Source: Candidatus Eiseniibacteriota bacterium (lineage in GTDB: Bacteria > Eisenbacteria > RBG-16-71-46). From it: a DNA stretch of 64,000 nt. The notes beneath the pieces were generated by a model that was not told the DNA's origin, did no database searches, and saw only the letters and a list, made by a program, of their open reading frames with translations. Location of the stretch: positions 1,952,001 to 2,016,000 of the forward strand of contig CAVQXP010000004.1 of NCBI GenBank assembly GCA_963717935.1, read 5' to 3'. Below are positions 29,423-46,078 of the stretch, piece after piece; positions within the stretch are counted from its first letter, which is position 1, and every line of letters starts with the position of its first letter. The translations under genes were made by a program, and so were the position numbers.

Positions 29423-30854
29423 ATGAACCCGCCTCTCGGGCGATTCGCGGTGCCTGAGCTCGAGCCGGTCGCCGCGGCGCGCCTTGCGGCGCATCCATGG
29501 CCCGCGCAGGCGCTCGCCGTGCTCGAGCGGCTGCGCGCGGGCGGGCACCAAGCTTACCTCGTCGGGGGCGCGTTGCGCGACGTGCTGCTGGGCCGGGCGG
29601 GGGCGGAGTTGCTGGACGTGGCGACGGACCGCCGGCCGGATGAGGTCATGGCCCTGTTCCCGCGCATCGAGCCGATCGGGATCGCGCATGGCACGGTGCT
29701 CGTGATGTTCGAGGGGCTCGCTCTGGAGTGCACCACGTTCCGGCGCGAGGGTGCGTACGCGGACGCGCGCCACCCGGACGACGTGGAGTTCACCACGGAC
29801 CTGCGCGCGGACCTGGGGCGGCGCGACTTCACCGTGAACGCCCTGGCGTACGATCCGCTGAGCGGCGTGCTGGTGGACGTCCACGGTGGGCTCTTGGACC
29901 TGGAACACCGCCGCCTGCGGGCGGTGGGAGATCCGCTGGCGCGCTTCCGCGAAGACGCGCTCCGTCCCGGTGCGGGCGGCCCGCTTCGCGGCCACCCTGG
30001 AGTTCGCGATCGAGCCCGCCACGCGCGCGGCCCTCGGGGGAGTGGTGGATCGCGCGCGGCTCGTGGCGCCGGAGCGCGTGCGCGAGGAACTGGTGAAGCT
30101 GATGGCCGCGCGGCGGCCCTCAACCGGTCTCGAGCTGCTGCGCGAGGCGGGGCTGCTGGAGCTGTGGATGCCGGAGCTCACGCGGTGCCACGGCGTGCCG
30201 CAGAACCGCTGGCACGCGCACGATGTCTACACCCATTTGCTTGAGACCTGCGATCACGCGCCGACGGCGAAGGCCTTGGTGCGGTGGGCCGCCCTGCTGC
30301 ACGACATCGGCAAGCCCGACACGCGCGTCGAGCGGCGGGGCGACGGGACCTTCTACGGGCATCAGACGGTGGGAGCGGATCTGGCCGACCGCCTGCTTGA
30401 GCGGCTGCGGTTCCCGGGCGTCCAGCGCGCGGCGGTCGTTCACCTGGTGCGCGAGCACATGTTCGACTACCGGTCGGAGTGGAGCGACGCGGCGGTGCGA
30501 CGCTGGGTGCGCCGCGTCGGGGAGGAAGCGGTCGCGGACCTGTTCGACCTGCGCATCGCGGACATGCTGGGCAACGGCCTGAAGACGGGCTTCCCGGCGC
30601 AGTTGGAACCGCTGCGGCGGCGCATCGGGCGCGTGCTGGCCGGATCCCACGCCCTGCGCGTCCGCGACCTCGCGGTGGACGGGAGTGACGTGATGGGGGC
30701 GCTCGGCATCGGGCCGGGCGTGGTGGTGGGGGAGGCGCTGGAAGGGCTGCTGGAGGACGTGCTCGAGGAGCCGGGCCGTAACACGCGCGAGTGGCTGCTG
30801 GCGCGGTTGGCGGAGTTGCGTGCGACGCGCGCCGGCACGTCCGGCGGCGCTTGA
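29423..30854 (+). CDS. cca: tRNA nucleotidyltransferase (CCA-adding enzyme) with HD domain (frameshift near 29965)
   Basis: YLVGGALRD, HGTV, RRDFTVNA, FREDALR, ERVREEL, LLHDIGKP. Confidence 0.9.
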
Positions 30855-32009: not shown

Positions 32010-32396
32010 GTGACGCGCCGCCCCCGTCCGTCCGCCGGACCCGACCCCGTCGTCGTGCTGAGGGCCGCGGCCCGCGCCGCGCTCGCGAAGAAGGCGCACG
32101 ACGTGGTGGCGCTGGATCTGCGCGGGCTCAACGCGGTGTGCGAGCATTTCCTGCTGTGCTCGGCGTCGAGCGATGTCCAGGTGAAGGCCGTGGCGGAGAA
32201 CATCGAGGAAGTACTGCGCGAGCAGGGCCTGCGGCCGTGGCACGTCGAGGGGCTGAAGGGCCGCCGCTGGGTGCTGCTCGATTACGTGGGGCTCGTGATC
32301 CACGTGTTTCACGAGAAGACCCGCGAGTACTACCTGCTCGACCGGCTCTGGGGCGACGCGAGGAGCGTGGATCTTGGTCTGGAAGGAACTGACTGA
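32010..32396 (+). CDS. rsfS: Ribosome silencing factor
   Basis: KKAHDVVALDL, WVLLDY, IHVFHEKTREYYLLDRLWGDA. Confidence 0.93.
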   Translation: MTRRPRPSAGPDPVVVLRAAARAALAKKAHDVVALDLRGLNAVCEHFLLCSASSDVQVKAVAENIEEVLREQGLRPWHVEGLKGRRWVLLDYVGLVIHVFHEKTREYYLLDRLWGDARSVDLGLEGTD

Positions 32397-34113
32397 GGGT
32401 CTGGCCGCAGCGTTGCGCGAGACGGGACTGCACACCCCCGAGCGCATGGCGCGGCTCGAGCTCTCCATCCCGCGCGAGAGCGCGCACGGGGACTGGACCA
32501 CCAATCTCGCGCTCCTGATCGCGAGGGAAGTCCGGCGGCCGCCACGCGCGGTGGCCGAGGCCCTGGCGGCCGCGTTCCCACAGGATCCCTCGACCTTCGC
32601 GAGCGTCGAGGTCGCGGGCCCGGGGTTCGTGAACTTCCGCTACAGCGAGGCGTTCCTGGACCGCCTGCCCGGGCTCATCGTGGAGGCCGGCGGGGCGTTC
32701 GGCTCGAGCGTGGGCGGGGCGGGGGCGCGGGTGCTCGTGGAGTACGTGAGCGCGAACCCGACGGGGCCCCTGAACATCGTGAGCGCGCGGGCGGCCGCGG
32801 TGGGCGCGACGCTGGTGCGGCTGCTCAGGGCGACCGGGCACGACGCTGCGGGCGAGTTCTACGTCAACGACGCAGGCCGCCAGGTGGACCTGCTCGGCCA
32901 GTCGGTGGCGGCGCGCTTCGCCGAGGCCGCCGGGCTGGAGCGAGCGTTCCCGGTGGATGGCTACGAGGGCGAGTACGTGCGGGAGATCGCCGCTTCACTG
33001 CCCCCGGATGCCGCGCGCGCGGCCCTCGACGCTCCCGGAGGCGCGGCGTGGTTCCGCGACCAGGCCCTCGAACAGATGGTGCGCGAGCAGCGCCGGGACC
33101 TGGACGAGTACGGCGCCGAGTTCGCGCAATGGTTCCGGGAGTCGGAGCTGCACCGGTCGAAGGCGGTGGAGGAGACGCTGCGGGCGCTCGAGGCGCGCGG
33201 CATGACGTATCGCGCCCGGCTCCCGGAGGTGGATCGCACCGGGGACGGGGTGACCGGGGGCGCTGCGGAGCTCGAGGAGGCGACGTACCTGCGCACCGGG
33301 CGCTTCGGCGATGACAAGGACCGGGTGATCGTGCGCAGTGACGGCTCTCCCACGTACCTGCTCCCGGATCTCGCCTACCACCGCGACAAGCGAGGCCGTG
33401 GCTACGCGGTTGCCATCGACCTCTGGGGCCCCGACCACCACGCCTATGTCACCACCATGAAGGCGGCGCTGGCCGCGCTGGGGATCGAGGGCGACTTCCT
33501 GGAGGTGCTCATCGTGCAGCAGGTGAATCTGTGGGAGACGGGTGCGGACGGCCGCCGGGAGCAGGTCAAGATGAGCAAACGGCGTGGCCGGATCGTGATG
33601 CTGCGCGACCTGGTCGAGGACATCGGGGCCGAATGCGCGCGGTTCTTCTTCCTGATGCGCTCCACCAACGCCCACCTGGACTTCGACCTGGACGTGGCAC
33701 GGCGCCAGAACGACGAGAACCCGGCCTTCTACGTCCAGTACGCGCATGCGCGCATCGCGTCGATCCTGCGCTACGCCGCCGAGCGCGATCTGCGGCCCGC
33801 GGAGGCGGGTGCCCTGCGGCTCTCCGCCGCGGAAGAGGTGGCGCTGGCGCGGCGCCTGGCCGTCTTCCCGGAACTCGTGCGCGGGGCGGCGGCCGCGCGG
33901 GAGCCGCACCGCCTGCCTGCCTACCTCGTGGAGACGGCGGCGGAGTTCCACCGCTTCTATCACGCCTGCCGGGTGGTCGGGGAGGACACCGCCGTCACCC
34001 GTGGGCGACTCCTGCTCGCCGAGGCGGCCCGCACCGTGCTCGCGAACGGGCTCGCGCTGATGGGCGTGTCGGCCCCCGAGCGGATGGAGCGCGCGACGGA
34101 GGCCCCGGCATGA
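32374..34113 (+). CDS. argS: Arginine-tRNA ligase
   Basis: HGDWTTN, AGPGFVNF, EYVSANPTGPL, YVNDAGRQ, WGPDHH, KMSKR, YVQYAHAR, GVSAPERM. Confidence 0.96.
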   Translation: MVWKELTEGLAAALRETGLHTPERMARLELSIPRESAHGDWTTNLALLIAREVRRPPRAVAEALAAAFPQDPSTFASVEVAGPGFVNFRYSEAFLDRLPGLIVEAGGAFGSSVGGAGARVLVEYVSANPTGPLNIVSARAAAVGATLVRLLRATGHDAAGEFYVNDAGRQVDLLGQSVAARFAEAAGLERAFPVDGYEGEYVREIAASLPPDAARAALDAPGGAAWFRDQALEQMVREQRRDLDEYGAEFAQWFRESELHRSKAVEETLRALEARGMTYRARLPEVDRTGDGVTGGAAELEEATYLRTGRFGDDKDRVIVRSDGSPTYLLPDLAYHRDKRGRGYAVAIDLWGPDHHAYVTTMKAALAALGIEGDFLEVLIVQQVNLWETGADGRREQVKMSKRRGRIVMLRDLVEDIGAECARFFFLMRSTNAHLDFDLDVARRQNDENPAFYVQYAHARIASILRYAAERDLRPAEAGALRLSAAEEVALARRLAVFPELVRGAAAAREPHRLPAYLVETAAEFHRFYHACRVVGEDTAVTRGRLLLAEAARTVLANGLALMGVSAPERMERATEAPA

Positions 34114-35039
34114 GCGCCCGGCCCGACATCCTGGTGGTCGGCTCGGTCGCCCTCGACTCGGTACGCACGCCGTACGGCGAGACGGTGGAGGCGCTGGGCG
34201 GCTCGGCCTCGTATTTCTCCCTCTCGGCAAGCCAGTTCGCCCCGGTGAGCGTCGTCGCCGTGGTGGGTGAGGACTTCCCGGCGGAGCACCGCGCGCTCTT
34301 CGAGAGCCGTGGCGTCGACCTCTCGGGGCTGGAGACCGCGCCGGGACGCACCTTCCGGTGGCGGGGCGAGTACGGGCCGGAGCTGGCCCATGCGCACACG
34401 CTCGAGACCCAGCTGAACGTCTTCTCCACGTTCCACCCGCAGGTCGGGGAGCAGCACCGCGGCTGCCCGTACGTCTTCCTCGCGAACATCGACCCCGAAC
34501 TGCAACTGGAGGTGCTCCAGCAGATGGGGAAGCCCCGGCTCACCCTCAGCGACACCATGGACTACTGGATCGCGCGCAAGCCGGACCTGGTGCTGGAGGT
34601 GCTGAGACGCGTGGACGTGGCCTTGCTGAACGAGGAGGAGGCCCGTGCGCTGGCCGGGGAGAGCCTCCTCGTGCGCGCGGCGGATCGGCTGCTCGAGCAG
34701 GGCGCGAAGGCCGTCATCATCAAGAAGGGCGAGCACGGGGCCCTCTTCCGCACGGCCGAGGAGCGCTTCGTCATCCCGGCCTTCCCGGTGGACGCGATCC
34801 GGGACCCCACCGGCGCCGGCGACTCCTTTGCGGGCGGGTTCCTGGGGTGGGTGGCGCGGTGTGGCCGGACCGATGGGGGCATGCTCCAGCAGGCGATGGC
34901 CTGCGGGACGACCATGGCCTCGCTGGCGATCGAGGACTTCAGCCCCCGGCGCCTTGCCGAGACGGGGCCGGAAGAGATCGCCCGGCGGGTCGCCCTGCTG
35001 CACCGCATGGTGCATTTCGACCTCGAGCCGCTGTCCTAG
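34110..35039 (+). CDS. PfkB-family carbohydrate/nucleoside kinase
   Basis: GSVALD, LGGSASY, KKGEHG, DPTGAGDSFAGG. Confidence 0.92.
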   Translation: MSARPDILVVGSVALDSVRTPYGETVEALGGSASYFSLSASQFAPVSVVAVVGEDFPAEHRALFESRGVDLSGLETAPGRTFRWRGEYGPELAHAHTLETQLNVFSTFHPQVGEQHRGCPYVFLANIDPELQLEVLQQMGKPRLTLSDTMDYWIARKPDLVLEVLRRVDVALLNEEEARALAGESLLVRAADRLLEQGAKAVIIKKGEHGALFRTAEERFVIPAFPVDAIRDPTGAGDSFAGGFLGWVARCGRTDGGMLQQAMACGTTMASLAIEDFSPRRLAETGPEEIARRVALLHRMVHFDLEPLS

Positions 35040-35123
35040 CTGCGCGGCGGCCGCGGGTTAGCCGCGCCTTCTCACGTCGGACACGAAGCCCGCAGTCGAC
35101 CGTAGCAGCGTCGCTGGACGCTG

Positions 35124-35132
35124 TGCTAGGAT
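35124..35132 (+). promoter_or_regulatory. Possible extended -10 promoter for the 35170-37484 module
   Basis: TGcTAGGAT about 40 nt upstream of the TAAGGAG RBS and GTG start. Confidence 0.35.
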
Positions 35133-35169
35133 ACGTCGTCGGCCCCCCCCCTGCCGGTAAGGAGAACAG

Positions 35170-35901
35170 GTGTTGGAAGACACGCGTATGTCATGGACGA
35201 CGGACGCTGAGAACGGGATTCGTGGCCTGCCGGACGTGGAGGACGCGAAGATCCTGGTCGAAGACGGTGAGATTCGCGAGGTCCACGTGATCTCGGCTGC
35301 CGGGAAACCGGCCAAGCTCATCGTGAAGGATGTGGTGGGTTTGATCTGGACCCGTTACAACCGGCGGATCGACCACCGCATCGTCGGGGTGGTTCGCATG
35401 CGGCCCCAGGCGAACGTCACTGCGAAGGCCGAGCCCTTGTCCGTCCCGGAAGAGCCCGCTCCGGTGCTGGAGGACGCGAGCCGCATCCGCTTCGGGAGCG
35501 TCAATCTCTACATGGATGGCGCGCGCGCCCAGGCGCAGGTGGAATTGCGCTGGAAGGGCGTGCTGCGCATGGGGAGCGCCTCCGGCTGGTGCTCGCGGGA
35601 GGGCGCCCACCGGCTGGTGGCGGCCGCGACCCTGACGGCGCTGCAGGAGTTCCTCGACGACGACGTCGCGCTGGGAGTCGAGGGGGTGGACGTGGTACGG
35701 ATGGGCGGGCACGAGGTCGCGATCGTGGGCCTCGCGCTGCTCACGCACCGGCAGGAGAAGCTCCTGACGGGTTGCTGCACGGTGGGCCGGGACCTCCCGC
35801 AGGCGGTCGTCCTGGCCACCCTCTCGGCTTTGAATCGTGTGATCGGCGGCCTGAAGACGAAGGAGCCGATCGAGTACATCTTGAGACCGGTATCGACCTA
35901 G
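35170..35901 (+). CDS. Hypothetical cytoplasmic protein; C-terminal domain resembles the LeuA allosteric (regulatory) domain
   Basis: TAAGGAG RBS; N-domain IREVHVI...KLIVKDV...IDHRIV; C-domain has a duplicated beta3-alpha pattern ending RDLPQAVVLATLSALNR. Confidence 0.8.
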   Translation: MLEDTRMSWTTDAENGIRGLPDVEDAKILVEDGEIREVHVISAAGKPAKLIVKDVVGLIWTRYNRRIDHRIVGVVRMRPQANVTAKAEPLSVPEEPAPVLEDASRIRFGSVNLYMDGARAQAQVELRWKGVLRMGSASGWCSREGAHRLVAAATLTALQEFLDDDVALGVEGVDVVRMGGHEVAIVGLALLTHRQEKLLTGCCTVGRDLPQAVVLATLSALNRVIGGLKTKEPIEYILRPVST

Positions 35902-35987
35902 GAGCCAGCGGAGCGAGAAGACACGCGAGAAGCGAAGCGGAGCCACCTGTCGGGAAGATGGACGTACCCGCAGAATCCCTTGCCAAG

Positions 35988-35997
35988 TAAGGAGGTG
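35988..35997 (+). promoter_or_regulatory. Full-length Shine-Dalgarno sequence
   Basis: TAAGGAGGTG; 8 nt from GGAGG to GTG 36004. Confidence 0.75.
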
Positions 35998-36003
35998 GGC
36001 TTC

Positions 36004-36054
36004 GTGGATCTCATTCTCGTGCTCTTGGAATTCTTCGGCCGCGCGGGCTGGTAA
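36004..36054 (+). CDS. 16-aa small peptide MDLILVLLEFFGRAGW
   Basis: GTG GAT CTC ATT CTC GTG CTC TTG GAA TTC TTC GGC CGC GCG GGC TGG TAA behind a perfect SD; no other ORF uses this SD. Confidence 0.65.
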   Translation: MDLILVLLEFFGRAGW

Positions 36055-36158
36055 TCTCGGTCCGCCTGTCCGGACCTGAGCAGTAAGCTCCGAAGTGGAT
36101 GCCGGTCTCTCCATCCTCCGCTTGCGGAACGACACCCGCCCTCCATGACCGACGACGC

Positions 36159-37484
36159 ATGAGCGACTCACCGGCTGCGATCCACCCGCGGGCCTTCCGC
36201 ATCTACTATGCGCTGGTGGTGCTGGCCGCTGCCGCCTTCTTCATACTGGCCACGCCCGCGGCCGGCCCGCCGAGGCTGGTGGCGCTCGGTGTCGTCCTGG
36301 CGTTGATGGTCCTGAGCGAGGCTCGCCCCGTGCCGCTACCCAGCGGCGGCTACGCGACCGGCAGCGCGGTGCTCGACCTCGCGTCGATCATCATCCTGGG
36401 TCCCGTGTGGACCGCCTGGGTGGACCTGGCGAGCACGGTGGTCGTGCAGGGGGTCATACTGCGCAGGCCCCTGGTGCGTGTGACGCACAACGTGGCCATC
36501 TTCGCGCTCACCTCGTTCGCGGCGGGGTACGCCTTTCTCGCTGCCGGCGGCCAGGTGGGCGCCCTGGCGTTCCCGCGGCACATCGTGCCCCTGTTGGTGT
36601 GCGGGGGCGTCTACTTCCTCTGCAACTCGGCCTTCGTCTCGACCGTGCTCGGGCTCACCGCCGGCCCCGGCCCGTGGCGGATCTGGCAGCGCAACTTCCT
36701 GCAGGGAATCCTCCACCACCTCTCCTTCGTCGCGCTCGGCACGCTTGTGGCTGTGGTCTACTTCAGCGCCGGGCCCTGGGGACTCGTGCTGGTGGGCATC
36801 CCGTTCCTGGTCGCGCGGCACTCGTTCGGCGTGTACATGGAGATCCGCGCCGACCTCAAGGACTTCGTACGTGCCCTGTCCGAGGTGTTGGAGGAAGTGG
36901 ACCCGTACACCCGGCACCACTCGCACCGGGTGGCCCAGTACACGGTGCGGCTGGCGCGCGGGATGAGGCTCTCCGAGCGCGAGGTCGAGGAGATCGAGTA
37001 CGCGGCCCTGGTGCACGATCTGGGCAAGATCGGTCCGCAGCACCAGCATATCCTGCAGAAGCCGGGCTCGCTCTCGCACGAGGAGCAGCGCACGCTGCGC
37101 GCGCACCCGGCCGCCGGGGCCGAGATCGTGGCGCGGGTGCGGGCGCTGCGGCGCTCGGCCGAGATCGTGCGGACGCATCACGAGCGGCCCGACGGGCAGG
37201 GCTATCCGCTCGGCCTGCGCGCGGCGGACGTGCCCGTGGGGGCGCGCATCCTGAACGTCTCGGACGCCTTCGACGCGATGACCTCGGACCGCCCGTACCG
37301 GCGTGCGCTGTCGGTGGTTGCCGCGCTGGAGGAACTGCGGCGCGGCGCGGACTCCCAGTTCGACCGCACGGTGGTGGAGTGCCTGCTGCGCCTGCAGGCG
37401 GCCGGGCAGTTCCCCCTCATCCCGAGCCCCACGAGCGAGGATCTCCAGTTGCTCCGCCTGAAGCCCCGCGAGGCCGAGGGCTGA
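36159..37484 (+). CDS. Membrane-sensor (multi-TM, MASE9-like) HD-GYP cyclic-dinucleotide phosphodiesterase
   Basis: About 7-8 hydrophobic helices, then DPYTRHHSHRV, HDLGK, HHERPDGQGYPLGL, DAFDAMTSDRPYR. Confidence 0.92.
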   Translation: MSDSPAAIHPRAFRIYYALVVLAAAAFFILATPAAGPPRLVALGVVLALMVLSEARPVPLPSGGYATGSAVLDLASIIILGPVWTAWVDLASTVVVQGVILRRPLVRVTHNVAIFALTSFAAGYAFLAAGGQVGALAFPRHIVPLLVCGGVYFLCNSAFVSTVLGLTAGPGPWRIWQRNFLQGILHHLSFVALGTLVAVVYFSAGPWGLVLVGIPFLVARHSFGVYMEIRADLKDFVRALSEVLEEVDPYTRHHSHRVAQYTVRLARGMRLSEREVEEIEYAALVHDLGKIGPQHQHILQKPGSLSHEEQRTLRAHPAAGAEIVARVRALRRSAEIVRTHHERPDGQGYPLGLRAADVPVGARILNVSDAFDAMTSDRPYRRALSVVAALEELRRGADSQFDRTVVECLLRLQAAGQFPLIPSPTSEDLQLLRLKPREAEG

Positions 37485-38524
37485 TGCGCTACCGGGACGC
37501 CGGGGTGGACATCGCGCGGGCGGAAGGGCTCAAGCGGCGCCTCGGCCAGGCCGCGCGCTCGACCTGGCGAACGGGCGTGGCGCGGCTGCCGGGCGGCTTC
37601 GCCGGGGTGATGGATTTCCCCGCCGCGGGGAGCGGACGACAGACCCTGCTGGCCGCGAGCATGGACGGCGTGGGCACGAAGCTCCATCTCGCCCTGGCCG
37701 CCGGCCGCGTCGCGGACGCGGCCGGGGATCTCGTTTACCACGGAGCGAATGACGTGCTCGTGCACGGTGCGAGCCCGCTGGCCTTCCTCGACTACATCGC
37801 CCAGTCGCGGCTCGACCCGGAGGTCGTGCTGGCGGCCGTGGAAGGGATCGCGCTCGCCTGCCGGAAGGTCGGGGCGGTGCTCCTGGGTGGAGAGACGGCA
37901 GAGATGCCGGATACCTACCTGCCCGGGGTGGTGGATGTCGCCGGCTGCATGCTGGGTACGGTGCCGGAAGGCGGGTTGCTGGACGGCAGCGCGGTGCGCC
38001 CGGGCGATGCGGTGCTGGGACTCGCGGCGGCGGGACTGCACACGAACGGGTACTCCCTGGCTCGCGCGGTGCTCGGGCGTTCGGGCCTGGGGTTGGACGA
38101 TCGGCTCCCGGGGGGCGCGGGAGAGACGCTCGGAGAGGCGCTGCTCGCCCCCCATCGCTGGTACGGGCCCGCGCTCGGTCCCGCGCTCGGGGCGCGCCGC
38201 GTGCACGCGCTGGCGCATGTGACCGGCGGTGGCATCGCTGGCAACCTGGTGCGTGTGCTGCCGGCCGGCTGCCGGGCGCGCGTCCACGCCTCGGCGTGGG
38301 AGCGCCCGGCTCTCGTTCGCTGGCTCGTCGAGACGGGCGAGGTCCCGGAGGGCGATGCCCGGGACACCCTGAACCTGGGCATCGGCATGGTGGTGGTGTG
38401 TGCCCCCGAGGAGGCGGACCGGCTCGCGCGCGATCTGGCGCGGGCCGGCGAGCGCGTCTTTCCGCTGGGCTCGGTGCTTGCCGGCGAGCGCGGCGTGGAG
38501 TGGACGGAGGATCCAGGCCCGTGA
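37484..38524 (+). CDS. purM: AIR synthetase
   Basis: YRDAGVDI, DGVGTK, FLDY, GGETAEMP, GLHTNGYSL, HVTGGG, NLGIGM. Confidence 0.95.
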   Translation: MRYRDAGVDIARAEGLKRRLGQAARSTWRTGVARLPGGFAGVMDFPAAGSGRQTLLAASMDGVGTKLHLALAAGRVADAAGDLVYHGANDVLVHGASPLAFLDYIAQSRLDPEVVLAAVEGIALACRKVGAVLLGGETAEMPDTYLPGVVDVAGCMLGTVPEGGLLDGSAVRPGDAVLGLAAAGLHTNGYSLARAVLGRSGLGLDDRLPGGAGETLGEALLAPHRWYGPALGPALGARRVHALAHVTGGGIAGNLVRVLPAGCRARVHASAWERPALVRWLVETGEVPEGDARDTLNLGIGMVVVCAPEEADRLARDLARAGERVFPLGSVLAGERGVEWTEDPGP

Positions 38525-38570
38525 GGGCCGCCCCGCTGCGTTCCGTGGGGTGGACGGGGGGGACGGGGGG

Positions 38571-39617
38571 ATGGAGCGACTGCGAGGTGAGCGAGAGTTC
38601 GAGCCGTGCGCCGCGAGCGGGGCTCGGGCGGGGATGCCGGCCATGCTGGGGGAGTCAGCGGCCTGGGCGGCCGTGCGGGACGTGCTGCCGCGCGTGGCCC
38701 GGAGCGGACTCCCGGTGGTGGTGCTGGGGGAGACCGGGACCGGCAAGGAGCTGGTTGCGAGGGCGATCCACGTGCTTTCGGCGCGTGCCGGGCAGGTCTT
38801 CGTGGCGCAGAACTGCGGCGCCACGCCCGATACGCTGATCGAGAGCGAGCTCTTCGGCCACAGTCGCGGGGCCTTCACGGGCGCGGTGGCGGACCGGGCG
38901 GGGCTCTTCGAATCCGCCGCCGGGGGCACGCTCTTCCTGGACGAGATCGGGGACGCGAGCGCGCTGCTGCAGATGAAGCTGCTGCGCGTCCTGCAGGAGG
39001 GCGAGGCCCGGCGGGTGGGCGACACGCGCCTGCGCCGGGTGGACGTGCGGGTGGTCTCGGCCACGCACCGCTGCCTCGAGGAGGCCGTCGCGGGCGGGGC
39101 CTTCCGGGCGGACCTCTTCTTCCGCCTGAACGCGGTCCGGGTGCGCCTGCCGCCGTTGCGCGAGCGCGGCGACGACGTGCTGCTCCTGGCGCGGCATTTC
39201 CTGGCGGCGGCCGCCGCGGAGCTGGGGCAGGACCCACCCGAGCCTGGACCGGCGCTGGCCGACCACCTGCGGGCGTATCCGTGGCCGGGGAACGTGCGCG
39301 AGCTGGCGAACGCGTGTGCATTCGCCGTGCATGTGGGTGAAGCGCGGGGCCGGGTGGACCTCGAGCACTGGCCCGAGACGCCGGTGCTGCCGGGGGCCGG
39401 GGCGGGGCCCGTGGCGCCCGGGCTTCACGCCGAGACGCGCGCGCTCGAGGAACGCCGGCTGCGGGAGACCCTGCAGCGCACGCGCGGGAACAAGTCGCAG
39501 GCGGCCCGGGCGCTGGGCCTGTCGCGGCAGGGACTGCTGAAGAAGCTGCGGCGCTACGGGTTCACCCGCGCCGAGTCGGCGGCGCTCGCTCTTGACGGTG
39601 CGGGGGGCTCTCCCTAG
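38571..39617 (+). CDS. Sigma54-dependent transcriptional activator lacking an N-terminal sensor domain (start uncertain: 38571, 38634 or 38643)
   Basis: GETGTGKE, ESELFGH, GAFTGA, FLDEIG, WPGNVREL; Fis-type HTH GNKSQAARALGLSR. Confidence 0.92.
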   Translation: MERLRGEREFEPCAASGARAGMPAMLGESAAWAAVRDVLPRVARSGLPVVVLGETGTGKELVARAIHVLSARAGQVFVAQNCGATPDTLIESELFGHSRGAFTGAVADRAGLFESAAGGTLFLDEIGDASALLQMKLLRVLQEGEARRVGDTRLRRVDVRVVSATHRCLEEAVAGGAFRADLFFRLNAVRVRLPPLRERGDDVLLLARHFLAAAAAELGQDPPEPGPALADHLRAYPWPGNVRELANACAFAVHVGEARGRVDLEHWPETPVLPGAGAGPVAPGLHAETRALEERRLRETLQRTRGNKSQAARALGLSRQGLLKKLRRYGFTRAESAALALDGAGGSP

Positions 39618-39719: not shown

Positions 39720-40733
39720 GTGGCCCGCAAGACGCTTCGCATCGGGCTCGTCGGCGTAGGGGCCGCGGCTCAGATCAACCACATCCCGGCATTGAAGAGG
39801 ATGGAGGACTTCGAGCTGGTGGCGCTCTGCGATCGCGACGCCGAGAAGGGCGCGCGCGTGGCGCAGAAGTTCCAGGTCCCGAAGTCGTACGGGCGGATCG
39901 AGGAGCTGCTCGGCGACGAGGAAGTGGACGTGGTGAACCTGTGCACGCCGAACTACCTGCACGCGCCCATGGCGGTCGCAGCGCTGGAGGCTGGCAAGCA
40001 CGTGTTCTGCGAGCGCCCGCTCTCGCGCAGCGCGGACGAGGCCGCGGCCATGGTCAAGGCGGCGAAGAAGCACGAGCGGGTCCTCATGTGCTCGGTCCAG
40101 CACCGTTTCCGCCCGGACGCGCAGCTGCTGCGCAAGTTCGTCGAAAAGGGCGACCTGGGTGAGATCTTCTTCGTCAAGGCGGGCTGGCTGCGCCAGCGCA
40201 CGCACTGGGACTCCGACGAGTGGCGCCGGCAGAAGCGCGAATCCGGGGGCGGCGTGATCCTCGACCTCGGCTTCCAGATGCTGGACCAGGCGCTCTGGAT
40301 TCTGGGCGGCCCGAAGGTGGAGTCGGTGACCGCGAGCCTGCACCGGGCCCGCAAGGGTGAGGTGGAGGACAACGCGATCGCGTTCTTCCGTCTGGCGTCC
40401 GGGGCGACCCTCACGCTCGAGGTGACCTGGGGTCTGCTCATGGAGAAGGATTTCGCGTACGTGAACCTGTTCGGCTCGGGCGGGGCGGCGTTGCTCAACC
40501 CGCTGCGCATCCACAAGGGCATGCACGGCACGCTCGTGAACGTGACGCCGCAGGTGGAGACCTCGCGCTTCCAGTACAAGCAGTCCATGGAGGCCCAGTT
40601 CGCCCATTTCGCCGATGCGCTGCGCAAGGGCGGCCAGCCGATGGGGGCGGCGGAGGAGATCCTGCCCGTCATGGAGATGCTGGACGCGGTCTATCGCTCG
40701 GCCGAGCAGGGCAAGGAGGTCCGACTCGCCTAG
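39720..40733 (+). CDS. Gfo/Idh/MocA-family oxidoreductase
   Basis: GLVGVG, CTPNYLH, AGKHVFCERP, SGGGVILDLG; GGAGGT RBS. Confidence 0.92.
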   Translation: MARKTLRIGLVGVGAAAQINHIPALKRMEDFELVALCDRDAEKGARVAQKFQVPKSYGRIEELLGDEEVDVVNLCTPNYLHAPMAVAALEAGKHVFCERPLSRSADEAAAMVKAAKKHERVLMCSVQHRFRPDAQLLRKFVEKGDLGEIFFVKAGWLRQRTHWDSDEWRRQKRESGGGVILDLGFQMLDQALWILGGPKVESVTASLHRARKGEVEDNAIAFFRLASGATLTLEVTWGLLMEKDFAYVNLFGSGGAALLNPLRIHKGMHGTLVNVTPQVETSRFQYKQSMEAQFAHFADALRKGGQPMGAAEEILPVMEMLDAVYRSAEQGKEVRLA

Positions 40734-40758
40734 GTCCGCCGGGTCTCGAGAGAGAGCG

Positions 40759-42310
40759 CTGGCGATCGCCTCGGGCATCCTGCTGGGGGTCGCCTTCCTG
40801 CCACGCGTGCCGGGTTTCGTCGCGTGGGGGGCGCTGGTGCCCCTCCTCGTCGGGCTGGAGCAGCGCGCGCGCCGCTCCGCCACGGCCGGGTCGCTGTTCC
40901 GGCTGGGCTGGCTCTTCGGGTTCGTCTTCTTCCTGATCGGGACTCACTGGATCGCGCTGCTCTCGGAGGTCGCGATCACGGTGCCGTGGCTCAAGTACCC
41001 GGCCTGGGTCGTGGCGGCGGCCTACCTTGCCCTGTACAGCGGGCTCGCGACGCTCGTCGCGGGGGTACTGGCGCGGCCGACGGGACCGCGGTGGCGGGGG
41101 CCGCGGGGGACGGCCCGGGTCCCGCTGGCGCTCGTCGTTCCCGGCGGTCTTCCTGTGCGTCGAGGAGCTGCGCGCCTCGGGCGAAGTCGGCTTCCCGTGG
41201 TTCCAGCCGGGCTACACGCAGCACGGCTACGTACCCATCCTGCAACTCGCGAGCCTGGGGAGCGTGAGTCTGGTGACGCTGTGGGTGGTGCTGGTGAACG
41301 TGCTGCTGTGGCGTGCGCTGGCGGGGAGCGCGCGTCTGCGCTCGGCACTCGGCGCTCTCCTGCTCGTGCTCGTGCCGTGGCTGTGGGGGCAGCGCGTGCT
41401 GCAGGTCACCACGAGGCCGGCCGGAGCGGCGGACCCGGCACGGGCGGTGGCGCTGGTGCAGGGGAACGTGCCGGGGGAGATCAAGTGGTCGGGGAAGCAT
41501 CAGCGGGAGATCCTCGCCACGTTCCTCGCGCTCTCGGACGAGGCCGCGGCCCGCAGGCCGCGGCCCGTCGTGGCGATCTGGCCGGAGACCGCGACGGGCA
41601 GCTACCTGCGCAAGCAGGTCGACCAGGCGCTGGCCGTGGCGGGTTTCGCAGCCCGTACCGGTGTACCGGTCTTCTCGGGCTTCGCCGACTACGGCTGGGA
41701 CCGGGACGGTCGGCAGCGCTCCTACAATTCCGCCGGGTTGTTCGCGTCGGACGGCTCGCTTGGACCCGTCTACGCGAAGCGGCACCTCGTGCCGTTCGGC
41801 GAGCGCATGCCGTTCCAGCGCCTGGTCCCCTGGCTCGGACGCCTCGATCTCGGGCAGGCCGAGTGGACCCCGGGCGAGCGGACGGTGCTGTTCCCGAGTG
41901 CGGCGGGGCCGTTCACCTGCCTGGTGTGCTTCGAGGCGATCTTCCCCGACCTGGCGCGCGCCGACGTGCGCGCAGGGTCGCGCTGGCTCGTGAACATCAC
42001 GAACGACGAGTGGTTCGGAAACAGTGCGGCGCTCTATCAGCACGCGGCGATGTCGGTGTTCCGGGCGGTGGAGAACCGGGTGCCGCTGGCGCGCTGCGCC
42101 AACACCGGCCTCACGCTGGTGGCGGACGCGAACGGGCGCGTGGTCGCGAAGCTGCCCGTGTTCGAGCCGGGCGTGCTGGTGACGGAGCTCCCGCGTCCCG
42201 CCGCGATCGGGTTCCCGACGCCGTACACGCGTTTCGGTGACTGGCCGGGCCTGCTGAGCCTCCTGGCGGTCGTCGGGCTCGCACTGCGCGCTGCCACGCG
42301 GTCGCGTTGA
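40759..42310 (+). CDS. lnt: Apolipoprotein N-acyltransferase (start uncertain; frameshift near 41140)
   Basis: TM-rich N-terminus; GFPW, VQGNV, WPET, YAKRHLVPFGE, VCFEAIFP, NITNDEWFG, RAVEN, RCANTG. Confidence 0.92.
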
Positions 42311-44171: not shown

Positions 44172-44918
44172 GTGGAGACGATCCGGCTGCGCGTCGCGTA
44201 CGACGGGACGGACTTCCACGGCTGGCAGCGGCAGCCGGGGTGTCGCACGGTGCAGGAGGTGCTCGAAAGGGGATTGGCGGGGGTGCTCGGAGTGGAGGAG
44301 GTCAGGGTCCATGGCGCGGGCAGGACGGATGCGGGGGTTCACGCGCGCGGGCAGGTGGCCTCGTTCTGCGCCGGGACGCGGATCCCGGCCGCCGCGCTGA
44401 AGCACGCGCTCGCGCCGCGCCTGCCGCGGGACGTGCGCGTCCTGGACTCGGCGTCCGCGCCGGACGAATTCGACGCCCGGCGCTCCGCGCTGGCGCGGCG
44501 CTACTCGTACCGCCTGCTGCGCGCGGAGGACCCCACCGAGGAGAGGTTCGCATGGCGGCCACGGCGCTGGCCGGAGAGCGCGGCGCTGGAAGCGGCCACG
44601 CGCATGCTGGAGGGACGGCGGGACTTCTCGTCGTTCCGCTCGACCGGGAGTTCGGAATCGAACCCGGTGTGCGAGGTCACGCGCGCACGCTGGGTCGCGT
44701 GGGAGGGGGGACTCCGGTTCGAGATCGTGGCGGACCACTTCCTCTACCACATGGTGCGGAGCATCGTGGGCACGGCACTGGAGGTCTGCAAGACCGCGGA
44801 CCCGGCGGGTCGGATGCGTGCGGTGATCGAGGCGGGGGACCGCTCGGTCGCGGGGCCGACGGCACCGGCCCGCGGGCTCTGCCTTGAGGAGGTCATGTAC
44901 CCGGGGGTGACGTCATGA
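44172..44918 (+). CDS. truA: tRNA pseudouridine(38-40) synthase
   Basis: YDGTDFHGWQRQ, AGRTDAGVHA, DFSSF, FLYHMVR, TAPARGL. Confidence 0.96.
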   Translation: METIRLRVAYDGTDFHGWQRQPGCRTVQEVLERGLAGVLGVEEVRVHGAGRTDAGVHARGQVASFCAGTRIPAAALKHALAPRLPRDVRVLDSASAPDEFDARRSALARRYSYRLLRAEDPTEERFAWRPRRWPESAALEAATRMLEGRRDFSSFRSTGSSESNPVCEVTRARWVAWEGGLRFEIVADHFLYHMVRSIVGTALEVCKTADPAGRMRAVIEAGDRSVAGPTAPARGLCLEEVMYPGVTS

Positions 44919-46078
44919 GACGCATGGATACCTGGTCGCTGCTGGCGGTTCTCACGTGCGTGCTCTCCGGCGGGTTCCCGGCGGGGGCCCGGGCGCAGCG
45001 GGCGGATCCGGGCCGCGCGCCGACGCGCGCCGAACTCGGCGCGCAACTCTCGACCGCGCGGCGGAACGTGATCAGCGTGGCCGCCGAGCGCGTGAGCCCG
45101 GCGGTGGTGACGGTGAGCGTCGAGGCCACGCGGATGGTGCGCATGGATCCGTTCGGGGGGCTGTTCCGCGACCCCTTCTTCGACCAGTTCATGCCGACAC
45201 CCGAGCGGGCGCAACGCATCTCCGGGTTGGGCTCGGGCGTGATCGTGGATGCGAGCGGAGTCGTGCTCACGAACGAACACGTGGTGCGCGAGGCGCAGAA
45301 GGTCTCGGTCACGCTGCCCGACGGGCGCCAGTTCGCGGCCGAGGTGCTGGGTGCGTCGACGGCCTACGACCTGGCCGTGCTGCGGATCAAGGGAAACCGG
45401 CTGCCGGCGGCGCCGCTGGGACGCAGCGACGACCTGGTGGTGGGCGAGTGGGCGATCGCCATCGGCAACCCGTTCGCGAACCTGCTCGAGAGCACCGAGC
45501 CGACGGTCACCGCCGGGGTGATCAGCGCGACGGACCGGGACATCAAGGGCGGGGCCACGCAGGTGGGGGTCTACAAGCACATGATCCAGACGGACGCCGC
45601 CATCAACCCGGGCAACAGCGGTGGCGCGCTGGTGAACGCGGAGGGGGAGGTGATCGGCATCAACACGTTCATCTTCTCGGGCAGCGGCGGCTCGGTGGGC
45701 ATCGGTTTCGCCATCCCGATCGATCTCGCGCGCCGCATCCTCGAGGAGGTGACGAGCTACGGGCGCGTCCGCGTGGCGTGGCCGGGGATGCAGGTGCAGG
45801 TGGTGGACGGTCGCCTGGCTCAGCAGCTGGGCTGGTCGGACGGGGGGGGCATGGTCGTGACCCGGATCGAGCCGGGCGGGCCCGCCGCCAAGGCCGGCGT
45901 GCAGGTCCGGGACCGCATCCGCAAGGTGAACGGGCGCGCGGTGGACACGGTGGACGACATCCAGGCCAGCGTCTACGGCCGATTCGTGGGGGACGCGTTG
46001 ACGTTGACGCTCGAGCGGGAAGGGCGCGCGCTCACGCTCCCGGTCGTGCTGGCCGAGGCCCCGCGGAGCACGGAATGA
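44915..46078 (+). CDS. HtrA/DegP-family serine protease with one PDZ domain
   Basis: Signal peptide; GSGVI, TNEHV, DLAVL, IQTDAAINPGNSGG; C-terminal PDZ. Confidence 0.93.
   Translation: MRRMDTWSLLAVLTCVLSGGFPAGARAQRADPGRAPTRAELGAQLSTARRNVISVAAERVSPAVVTVSVEATRMVRMDPFGGLFRDPFFDQFMPTPERAQRISGLGSGVIVDASGVVLTNEHVVREAQKVSVTLPDGRQFAAEVLGASTAYDLAVLRIKGNRLPAAPLGRSDDLVVGEWAIAIGNPFANLLESTEPTVTAGVISATDRDIKGGATQVGVYKHMIQTDAAINPGNSGGALVNAEGEVIGINTFIFSGSGGSVGIGFAIPIDLARRILEEVTSYGRVRVAWPGMQVQVVDGRLAQQLGWSDGGGMVVTRIEPGGPAAKAGVQVRDRIRKVNGRAVDTVDDIQASVYGRFVGDALTLTLEREGRALTLPVVLAEAPRSTE

Follow-up and report, generated by a model that had tools for sequence, protein, structure and literature searches.

A conserved 16-codon open reading frame within a structured RNA domain upstream of a MASE9-like HD-GYP gene in Candidatus Eisenbacteria

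What might a gene of only 16 codons do between the gene of a 243-amino-acid protein and that of a membrane protein carrying an HD-GYP domain? This question is raised by a stretch of 64,000 nucleotides from Candidatus Eiseniibacteriota bacterium (GenBank assembly GCA_963717935.1, contig CAVQXP010000004.1, positions 1,952,001 to 2,016,000 of the forward strand), here called the window, whose own coordinates are used throughout. Three co-oriented units lie on its + strand, as a previous sequence-only reading of this DNA had described: P243, a 243-amino-acid open reading frame (ORF) with a GTG start and an AAGGAG Shine-Dalgarno (SD) sequence upstream (35170-35901), a 16-codon mini-ORF with a GTG start and a TAA stop (36004-36054), and the HD-GYP ORF, whose open frame spans 36099-37484. 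In that reading the peptide was a ligand or modulator of the membrane domain in a layout resembling the Agr quorum-sensing system, with P243 as a partner or maturation factor. Two features were missed in it: the mini-ORF is embedded in a covarying RNA structure, and the HD-GYP gene lacks a good SD. Considering both, a role of the peptide as a leader acting in cis is at least as likely as a role as a ligand, and the element looks more like a built-in device for controlling translation, or a micropeptide that stays inside the cell, than a secreted quorum-sensing signal; an Agr-like secreted signal is unlikely. The reading put forward here, in which a translated cis-acting leader peptide and an RNA device control the HD-GYP gene, is proposed tentatively and is given somewhat less than an even chance.

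Homologous loci were collected with an alignment of 21 P243 relatives (A1), which was used to scan a single genome from each species and yielded 72 loci (L001-L072), mostly from Candidatus Eisenbacteria. The counts for the mini-ORF refer to 69 sequences, that is, 68 fetched loci plus the window, each of them holding the end of P243 and the start of HD-GYP. An ORF ending in [K/R]-x-[G/S]-W-stop was present between these two genes in 69/69, and in all of them a GGAGG precedes an ATG (35) or GTG (34) in the frame of the ORF, with an SD-to-start spacing of 8-10 nt in 63/69; loss of the small ORF from homologous loci, which had been named as evidence against the peptide, was thus seen in none. The window product reads V/M-DLILVLLEFFGRAGW-stop, and its SD, AAGGAGGTG (35989-35997, + strand), is near-perfect and ends 6 nt ahead of the start. 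Lengths of 8, 12, 13, 16 (50/69), 17-19 and 25 codons were found, and conservation stays anchored at the C-terminus while the length varies. With a stricter pattern, a single convincing copy was found in each locus, and likewise in the 64-kb window, except for four loci, two with variant endings and two cut by contig ends.

The mini-ORF is, as its codon pattern shows, under selection at the level of the peptide. Entropy at codon positions 1/2/3 was 0.94/0.39/1.13 over the last 12 codons and 0.32/0.30/0.94 over the last five, and pairwise codon differences (synonymous/non-synonymous) were 4730/11396 in frame versus 2880/13364 and 1210/14687 in the other frames. Glycine 12 is written as GGC, GGT or GGA, the basic residue at position 13 as AAG, AAA, CGC, CGG or CGA, and alanine 14 as GCC, GCT or GCG, while the stop codon is TAA in 54, TAG in 10 and TGA in 5 of the 69 sequences. 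Based on this third-position pattern and on the recurrence in 69/69 loci, the mini-ORF can be regarded as a real, conserved and translated-looking gene, and the tiny ORF with a strong SD noted earlier is confirmed. Among the 40 distinct 16-mers, W16 and K/R13 occur in all 40, A14 and G15 in 39 each and G12 in 34, so that the C-terminal end is a near-invariant G-[K/R]-A-G-W followed by the stop; K prevails over R at position 13 (49 vs 17 among 66 distinct sequences). In the remainder of these 16-mers, D or E fills position 2 in 35 and position 6 in 31, position 9 is E in 22, and positions 3-5, 7-8 and 10-11 are taken by hydrophobic residues; the net charge is -1 or -2 in 33/40. The helical hydrophobic moment of this N-terminal part (0.43 vs 0.23, standard deviation 0.11, in shuffles) corresponds to an amphipathic-helix pattern.

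The intergenic alignment also evidenced nucleotide blocks that are conserved outside the mini-ORF. A complementarity search revealed a long-range helix, P1, of 9-18 bp, with a complementary partner in nearly all loci and a span of 213-243 nt in 62/69 sequences. In the window P1 closes a structured RNA domain of about 229 nt that encloses the mini-ORF (35882-36110, as delimited by the covariance model R1 described below). Its strands, all the following being on the + strand, are GAGACCGGTATC (35883-35894, here within the last P243 codons) and GATGCCGGTCTC (36098-36109, which holds the ATG at 36099). Inside it lie P2, formed by GGAG (35901-35904, purine-rich and longer in other loci) and CTCC (36088-36091); two near-invariant AGCGRAGCG repeats (35907-35915 and 35931-35939, corresponding in the window row to columns G27-G34 and C52-G58), separated by a variable spacer of about 12 to 30 nt; the anti-SD-like 5' strand of P3 (35942-35946, GCCAC here and CCCAC in most loci), whose partner GTGGG (35995-35999) lies beside the SD; and a hairpin, Ha (CTG-T-CGGG ... 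CCCG-CAG), followed by a conserved AATC (35947-35973).

Covariation was assessed on A2, in which 62 of the 69 domains were aligned with MAFFT without being fitted to the structure; left out were three sequences with off-register anchors (L018, L028, L049), two with long insertions (L023, L033) and two near-duplicates (L032, L037). In A2 the 12 pairs of P1 are formed in 94.2% of cells and 8 of them are changed on both sides (for instance, columns 3/314 with AU 44 and GC 15, and columns 9/308 with AU 25, GC 22, GU 12 and UA 3). The base of hairpin Ha also varies (columns 79/116, UA 31 and CG 17), its upper stem being poorly aligned (64% paired overall). The whole structure of 28 pairs was 85.3% paired, versus 37-49% when partners were slid by 1-3 columns, and its covariation score was reached by 0/500 shuffles. 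Helices 2 and 3, P2 included, are paired in 84-88% of cells and vary little, which gives them weak support, and P3 is paired in 91.5% with both strands almost invariant; the alignment is compatible with the pairing of P2 and P3. RNAalifold on MAFFT alignments returned P1, part of P3 and a pairing of the two repeats with each other, the pairs of the last two never varying, whereas folding of the single sequence 35899-36165 (z = +0.44) was uninformative alone.

The covariance model R1, built from the 62 sequences, has a single match in the 64-kb window (35882-36110, 174 bits, E 1.2e-44) and one + strand match in 71/72 loci, 70 of them full-length, including all seven sequences left out of A2, and one cut by a contig end; the remaining locus, whose sequence breaks off within P243, has no match. 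On the minus strand, nine weak echoes of these sites appeared. The domain always lies between P243 and HD-GYP, with one copy per locus, and the element, mini-ORF included, is universal in the clade, an uncultured phylum. A search of 33000-39000 on both strands against Rfam 15 (E <= 1) gave only a chance minus-strand miRNA match, and ARAGORN detected no tRNA or tmRNA in 35000-37000. The RNA domain is, then, a family absent from Rfam, present in one copy per genome and closed by a covarying helix.

The position of P1 relative to P243 differs among loci. In roughly half of them, the window included, its 5' strand overlaps the last P243 codons (the L-R-P of the tail), in others it lies 30-75 nt past the P243 stop, and in a third group the P243 frame continues through P2 and the first AGCGRAGCG repeat as a ...QEASGAKR-type extension. 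Because not all loci have this overlap, it is only in some lineages that a ribosome reaching the end of P243 would open P1. At L050, a closed chromosome, the domain is shortened to 196 nt (L050:6635-6830) and the ORF to 8 codons, M-K-M-G-K-A-G-W, with the SD, helix P1, the RNA domain and the flanking genes all intact.

Two explanations would place the function mainly in the RNA. In type I toxin mRNAs, fold-back of the 5' end onto the 3' end and masking of the SD keep a tiny ORF silent, and by a similar logic the P1/P2 stem could be processed, for instance by RNase III, to release a stable small or dual-function RNA of about 200 nt. The long closing helix of 9-18 bp with P2, the anti-SD-like strand beside the SD, the near-constant length (62/69 spans of 213-243 nt) and the two invariant repeats would all suit such an autonomous RNA, to which we nevertheless assign a slim chance, as the element is single-copy and strictly syntenic in a housekeeping cluster, unlike toxin-antitoxin loci with their patchy or multicopy distribution, and the peptide is acidic and does not suit a membrane toxin, differing in this from the hydrophobic toxins of type I mRNAs. 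Alternatively, the RNA alone could be functional, e.g., as a riboswitch-like sensor for HD-GYP, the ORF being incidental. A covarying structure with invariant single-stranded blocks that matches no known family is what this would predict; it is disfavoured, and hardly credible, in view of the coding signature, which comprises the third-position pattern, the exchange of K and R through 2-3 base changes, TGG combined with three different stops, and an SD and start in 69/69 loci.

The gene downstream encodes an intact HD-GYP domain, predicted to be a phosphodiesterase (PDE) for cyclic di-GMP (or cGAMP): Pfam HD_5 matched residues 259-425 of the 461-amino-acid form with 120.3 bits (cut-off 27.2, 9.1e-35), and the translation contains HDLGK, HHERPDGQGYP and DAMTSDRPYR, with both the metal-binding H-D dyad and the G-Y-P motif. 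A hydropathy scan gave about 7-8 hydrophobic segments (residues 18-227 of the shorter form), and both the output domain and the multi-transmembrane (TM) architecture stand as previously described. The start at 36099 does not: orthologues align from M/V-S/N-E/D...R-H-P-x-x-F, and as relatives align from there and ATG 36099 sits within the 3' strand of P1, the likely start is ATG 36159, which gives a predicted product of 441 amino acids (36159-37484, + strand). ATG 36159 lies 49 nt past P1, a distance that is mostly 40-60 nt across loci, and about 105 nt separate it from the mini-ORF stop.

The strength of SD sequences was compared along the block as the SD-anti-SD duplex energy, allowing for HD-GYP the best start within 30 nt on either side. 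Median values were -10.2 kcal/mol for ArgS (96% of loci at or below -6), -9.5 for PfkB (90%), -9.5 for P243 (95%), -16.3 for the mini-ORF (100%), the strongest of the block, and -7.0 for PurM (66%), while HD-GYP showed -4.0, with only 9% of 68 loci at or below -6. The HD-GYP SD is therefore systematically weak (91% of 68 loci). The HD-GYP start is nearly always NTGA and thus overlaps a TGA in the +1 frame. An ATG, GTG or TTG occurs in the 3' strand of P1 in 46/68 loci; of the 46 ORFs opening there, 16 end in the TGA that overlaps the HD-GYP start, 10, including that of the window, are fused in frame and 20 behave otherwise. A second upstream ORF starting in P1 was consequently rejected as a conserved feature, as neither its frame is conserved nor are its peptides related.

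Based on these observations, the following model can be drawn for the cis-acting device. The segment 35882-36158 would serve the MASE9-HD-GYP gene as a leader that is both structured and translated, on a transcript shared with P243. The anti-SD-like strand of P3 would partly mask the SD of the mini-ORF within the domain of about 229 nt closed by P1, and the invariant G-K/R-A-G-W directly before the stop would make the ribosome pause or arrest at termination. Ribosome occupancy, together with the opening and closing of the RNA domain, may then set the use of the SD-poor HD-GYP start about 105 nt downstream, so that the level of the PDE, and hence the turnover of cyclic di-GMP, would be tied to some cellular signal. 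Both the stalling of the ribosome and its coupling, or that of RNA refolding, to HD-GYP initiation are inferred. What favours the model is the selection acting on the peptide, the conservation of the C-terminus in spite of the variable length, including the 8-codon ORF of L050, the partial likeness to the R-A-G-P of SecM along with the precedents of very short termination-arrest ORFs, and the combination of a structured leader, a weak HD-GYP SD and a fairly constant distance from P1 to the start.

Several results weigh against this model. The mean unpaired probability of the HD-GYP ribosome binding site was 0.435 in the free leader vs 0.440 when a stretch of 30 nt at the mini-ORF stop was kept open, and its accessibility rose by more than 0.1 in only 2/68 loci; in this thermodynamic model no coupling appears, and P1 insulates the RNA domain. 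The masking of the SD by P3 is without covariation support. No hairpin with the stop codon in its loop was evident (best stems 6.0 vs 5.46 nt with shuffled downstream sequence, local folding mean z -0.78). The RAPP-like arrest pattern failed, its fourth residue being W instead of P or G and K being commoner than R, and, since all three stop codons are used, the mechanism cannot hinge on a single release factor. The amphipathic N-terminal part would fit a binding helix at least as well as one bound in the ribosomal tunnel, and a stop-to-start distance of about 105 nt is long for simple reinitiation. Attenuation of the erm type was discarded, because opening the mini-ORF stop region leaves the predicted accessibility of the HD-GYP ribosome binding site unchanged.

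In the main alternative, which keeps the core of the sequence-only reading and drops secretion, the peptide would act in trans inside the cell, its 16-residue helix binding the MASE9 domain at the membrane face or within it and switching the PDE, while the RNA would only set the amount of peptide. MASE9 (PF20972) matched 21/25 orthologous TM domains (best E 1.9e-9), the window protein itself scoring 16.6 bits (E 0.0076, cut-off 24.3), and in the TM domain of orthologues polar and basic residues are kept without change or nearly so (R102, R174, H186, H187 and R220), which could conceivably face the acidic side of the helix. The available part of the report that named MASE9 leaves its ligand open and suggests that it binds within the membrane (bioRxiv 10.1101/2021.11.05.467447). 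A micropeptide would also account for conservation of the whole peptide and not only of its end, for the hydrophobic moment (0.43 vs 0.23), for a very strong SD, which points to high output, for the structural insulation of the RNA domain from the HD-GYP ribosome binding site, and for the fact that the peptide and HD-GYP genes are never separated. We consider it possible but doubtful: a peptide of 16 residues with 2-3 acidic side chains has neither the length nor the apolar character needed to span a membrane, the short ORFs of L050, L053 and L047 (8, 12 and 13 codons, respectively) would lose most of the helix and keep the motif, and gene order, being conserved over the entire block, does not identify HD-GYP as the partner. 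The two ideas may be combined in an RNA switch that responds to a ligand or protein and gates translation of a 16-amino-acid MASE9 ligand, giving an RNA-gated PDE switch throughout the phylum; this is an unlikely case. With its two AGCGRAGCG repeats and its closing helix, the domain would be a fitting partner for a symmetric molecule, for example a cyclic dinucleotide, or for a dimeric protein like P243.

The protein upstream offers another candidate partner. P243 matched no Pfam or NCBIfam family, PF08502 included, and a search of sequences in the Protein Data Bank with its profile gave 0 matches; its alignment has 61 invariant columns. An AlphaFold2 model (pLDDT, the predicted local distance difference test, 75.9) suggests an N-domain of alpha-beta-beta-alpha-beta topology (residues ~4-76), a disordered and variable Pro/Ala-rich linker (~79-104), a C-domain with (beta-beta-beta-alpha)x2 topology (~106-225) and a conserved but disordered tail, ...KEPIEYxLRP. 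In Foldseek searches the C-domain matched the regulatory domains of LeuA and citramalate synthase (E 1.2e-5 to 2e-4; best cases LeuA 1sr9, E 1.2e-5, and LiCMS 3f6h_B, E 5e-5, with a TM-score of 0.64 normalised on the target), and more weakly double-stranded RNA-binding and S5-type folds, in agreement with the LeuA-allosteric likeness proposed from sequence. The N-domain, modelled alone (pLDDT 87.9), resembles the ring-building motifs of PrgK, EscJ and FliF (E 5e-4 to 7e-3, TM-score up to 0.68) as well as other small alpha-beta-beta-alpha-beta domains. No recognisable peptidase, radical-SAM enzyme, transporter or peptide-processing fold was found among the folds of P243. The models thus depict a cytoplasmic protein with two small folds of binding or oligomerisation type in which nothing enzyme-like was recognised, and a part as maturation factor finds no support.

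Relatives of P243 are numerous. A word-indexed protein set contained 757 at E <= 1e-3, and among 1.84 billion cluster representatives the profile retrieved 2474 (E <= 1e-3), of which 1132 had E <= 1e-10; many of the 2474 have 210-250 amino acids and match profile positions 11-225 without the tail seen in Eisenbacteria. The automatic name given to the P243 cluster in a protein atlas is LeuA allosteric domain; PF08502 matched 4/20 distant relatives (E 1e-3 to 3e-3, all below the cut-off), and one relative led to hypothetical proteins of Thermoanaerobacter, Thermoanaerobacterium, Alkaliphilus, Geosporobacter, Desulfosporosinus and others. By homology, P243 belongs to a large, uncharacterised two-domain family that is common in Clostridia.

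The regulatory domain of LeuA binds free leucine, and the LeuA-like domain of P243 might by analogy recognise the carboxylate of the C-terminal Trp of the peptide, the complex then acting on HD-GYP or on the RNA. Besides the fold itself, the adjacency of the genes, which would share one transcript because P1 spans both, and the C-terminal location of the invariant part of the peptide speak for this idea. It is nonetheless improbable, given that relatives of P243 reach far beyond the element (the 2474 representatives, many from Clostridia) and lack the tail. Co-folding of P243 (A1) with the 16-amino-acid peptide scored 0.00, a run with no controls and a peptide below the calibrated size of the method, which counts neither for nor against binding.

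A short ORF beside a multi-TM sensor and a conserved C-terminal pentapeptide could also suggest a secreted or modified signal (Agr-, RiPP- or pheromone-like, RiPP denoting a ribosomally synthesised and post-translationally modified peptide) that is sensed from outside by the TM domain. The 16 codons hold no leader, signal or follower part, and the alternation of K and R at the sole basic position argues against a fixed Lys cross-link. The surroundings were scanned with Pfam (E <= 1e-6) over 22.9-47.4 kb, covering 36 of the 64 listed ORFs of at least 150 amino acids and the genes of the block, and no AgrB-like peptidase, C39-type exporter, radical-SAM or Opp protein was recognised among the ORFs scanned; the folds of P243 are likewise unlike those of known maturation enzymes. 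The Agr-like layout envisaged by the sequence-only reading accordingly lost its footing, and a secreted signal is very improbable. The sole protease recognised in that region was a trypsin-PDZ protein of the HtrA/DegP type (44915-46078), 9 kb downstream in the same co-directional housekeeping run. PDZ domains read C-terminal residues; nothing links this protease to the mini-ORF peptide.

Gene order gave less discrimination. The locus is part of a long housekeeping cluster with all genes co-directional, comprising on the + strand RsfS (32010-32396), ArgS (32374-34113), a PfkB-family kinase (34116-35039, Pfam), P243, the mini-ORF, HD-GYP, PurM (37484-38524, Pfam) and, downstream of PurM, a sigma-54 activator in an ORF opening at 38400 and running to 39617; the position between pfkB and purM had been given correctly, yet it understates this setting. 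Counting loci with a neighbour over loci with enough sequence to show it, HD-GYP follows P243 in 65/65, PurM follows HD-GYP in 52/55 (absent in L001 and L052, a remnant in L002), the sigma-54 activator is kept in 51/51, PfkB precedes P243 in 61/62, and ArgS and RsfS are present in 55/55 and 52/52, respectively. The linkage of the two large genes, on which the idea of a module had been built, does hold, but it is no tighter than that of the whole block from RsfS, ArgS and PfkB to the sigma-54 activator; it is therefore not specific, and synteny alone defines no module.

Some further observations concern the neighbouring genes. HD-GYP ends in a stop codon that overlaps the start of PurM (TGATG, 37482-37486), and the gap between their tblastn matches is <=21 nt in 51/61 loci having both genes; in L001 and L052 HD-GYP is nonetheless followed by the sigma-54 activator with no PurM in between. 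The sigma-54-dependent activator (38400-39617) has an AAA+ domain from residue 83 and an HTH_8 at its end, while its first ~80 residues are without a recognisable receiver or sensor domain and its open frame overlaps the end of purM. A gene of the CCA-adding/poly(A) polymerase type (29423-30854) appears split into two overlapping ORFs in different frames, with the head domain in 29423-30244 and the RNA-binding and HD domains in 29886-30854, which reflects a frameshift or else an error in the assembly. The gene for apolipoprotein N-acyltransferase (Lnt, 40615-42310) is likewise spread over two frames, with positions 1-96 of LNT_N in 40615-42240 and positions 100-159 plus CN_hydrolase in 41027-42310. 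A promoter and terminator scan yielded 0 promoters and two overlapping terminator-like sites, both within the HD-GYP coding region, and PADLOC returned nothing informative at the locus.

If the cis-acting reading is true, the element would represent, as far as the literature searched shows, an undescribed leader-peptide/RNA device ahead of a cyclic di-GMP phosphodiesterase and a new arrest-type motif, G-K/R-A-G-W-stop, from a phylum without a cultured member. If the peptide acts in trans, it would be the first candidate ligand of a MASE-type membrane sensor and among the shortest functional bacterial proteins. Under either reading there is a new RNA family absent from Rfam, found in 71 genomes in one copy each and containing a covarying helix, and P243 draws attention to a large uncharacterised protein family shared with Clostridia, some of which are cultured and have complete genomes.

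How does this element relate to systems already described? The closest general resemblance is to leaders that arrest the ribosome at termination. According to the accessible parts of the corresponding reports, PepNL has 14 amino acids and arrests at its stop codon, and CliM of Cd is likewise a short arrest ORF (PMC11890864, PMC13183943). As far as these texts go, PepNL, TnaC and CliM share with the mini-ORF a very short upstream ORF whose conserved C-terminal end abuts the stop ahead of a regulatable gene. None of them has sequence similarity to the mini-ORF, for which arrest is proposed here. PepNL and TnaC depend on UGA and release factor 2 in the descriptions available, whereas the mini-ORF uses all three stops; the latter also differs from these leaders in being enclosed by an RNA domain with a closing helix and in having about 105 nt between it and the following start.

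In SecM and RAPP-like peptides, the consulted part of one study describes the ribosome as stalling with the third residue of the motif in the P site and gives the pattern as (R/Q/H)-(A/G/D)-(P/G/S)-(P/G) (PMC10987492). The first three residues of the SecM R-A-G-P are matched by the R/K-A-G of the mini-ORF; positions 1-3 of the pattern fit only with R (17/66 distinct sequences), and position 4 is always W. RAPP-like proteins have an N-terminal localisation or export signal and a spacer of at least 30 amino acids, while the 16-residue product has neither, which makes force-sensing impossible, and they sit upstream of sec or yidC genes and not of a PDE.

A tiny peptide encoded beside or ahead of a regulatory gene has parallels too. 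The small proteins MgrB and SafA, which modulate sensors, are longer than the mini-ORF peptide and have a TM helix, and we know of no such protein for an HD-GYP enzyme. For peTrpL, the accessible text describes a 14-amino-acid attenuator leader peptide with a function in trans (PMC7968998); both it and the sensor-modulating small proteins share this arrangement with the element. The fusion of a membrane sensor to HD-GYP is itself a described architecture, with an 8-TM-type sensor in TM1467 and in HdgA of Streptomyces venezuelae, and the portion of that report at hand mentions no mini-ORF or leader RNA (bioRxiv 10.1101/2021.11.05.467447); the window protein differs from this type in falling below the Pfam MASE9 cut-off. 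P243 shares the (beta-beta-beta-alpha)x2 regulatory fold of LeuA and citramalate synthase, but unlike LeuA its domain comes without a catalytic TIM barrel, is joined to a domain resembling ring-building motifs and has no Pfam match. The Agr system (AgrD/AgrB/AgrC/AgrA) has in common with the locus the short ORF beside a multi-TM sensor; unlike Agr, no AgrB-like protein was recognised here among the ORFs scanned, the precursor has no leader or tail, the sensor carries HD-GYP with HisKA, HATPase and REC domains absent from it, and the element is single-copy in a housekeeping cluster. The literature on MASE9, HD-GYP, leader peptides with cyclic di-GMP phosphodiesterases and Eisenbacteria, subscription-only papers being outside the scope, contained no description of the element. 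On this evidence, the protein families are of known kinds, and the RNA domain with its mini-ORF constitutes an undescribed family.

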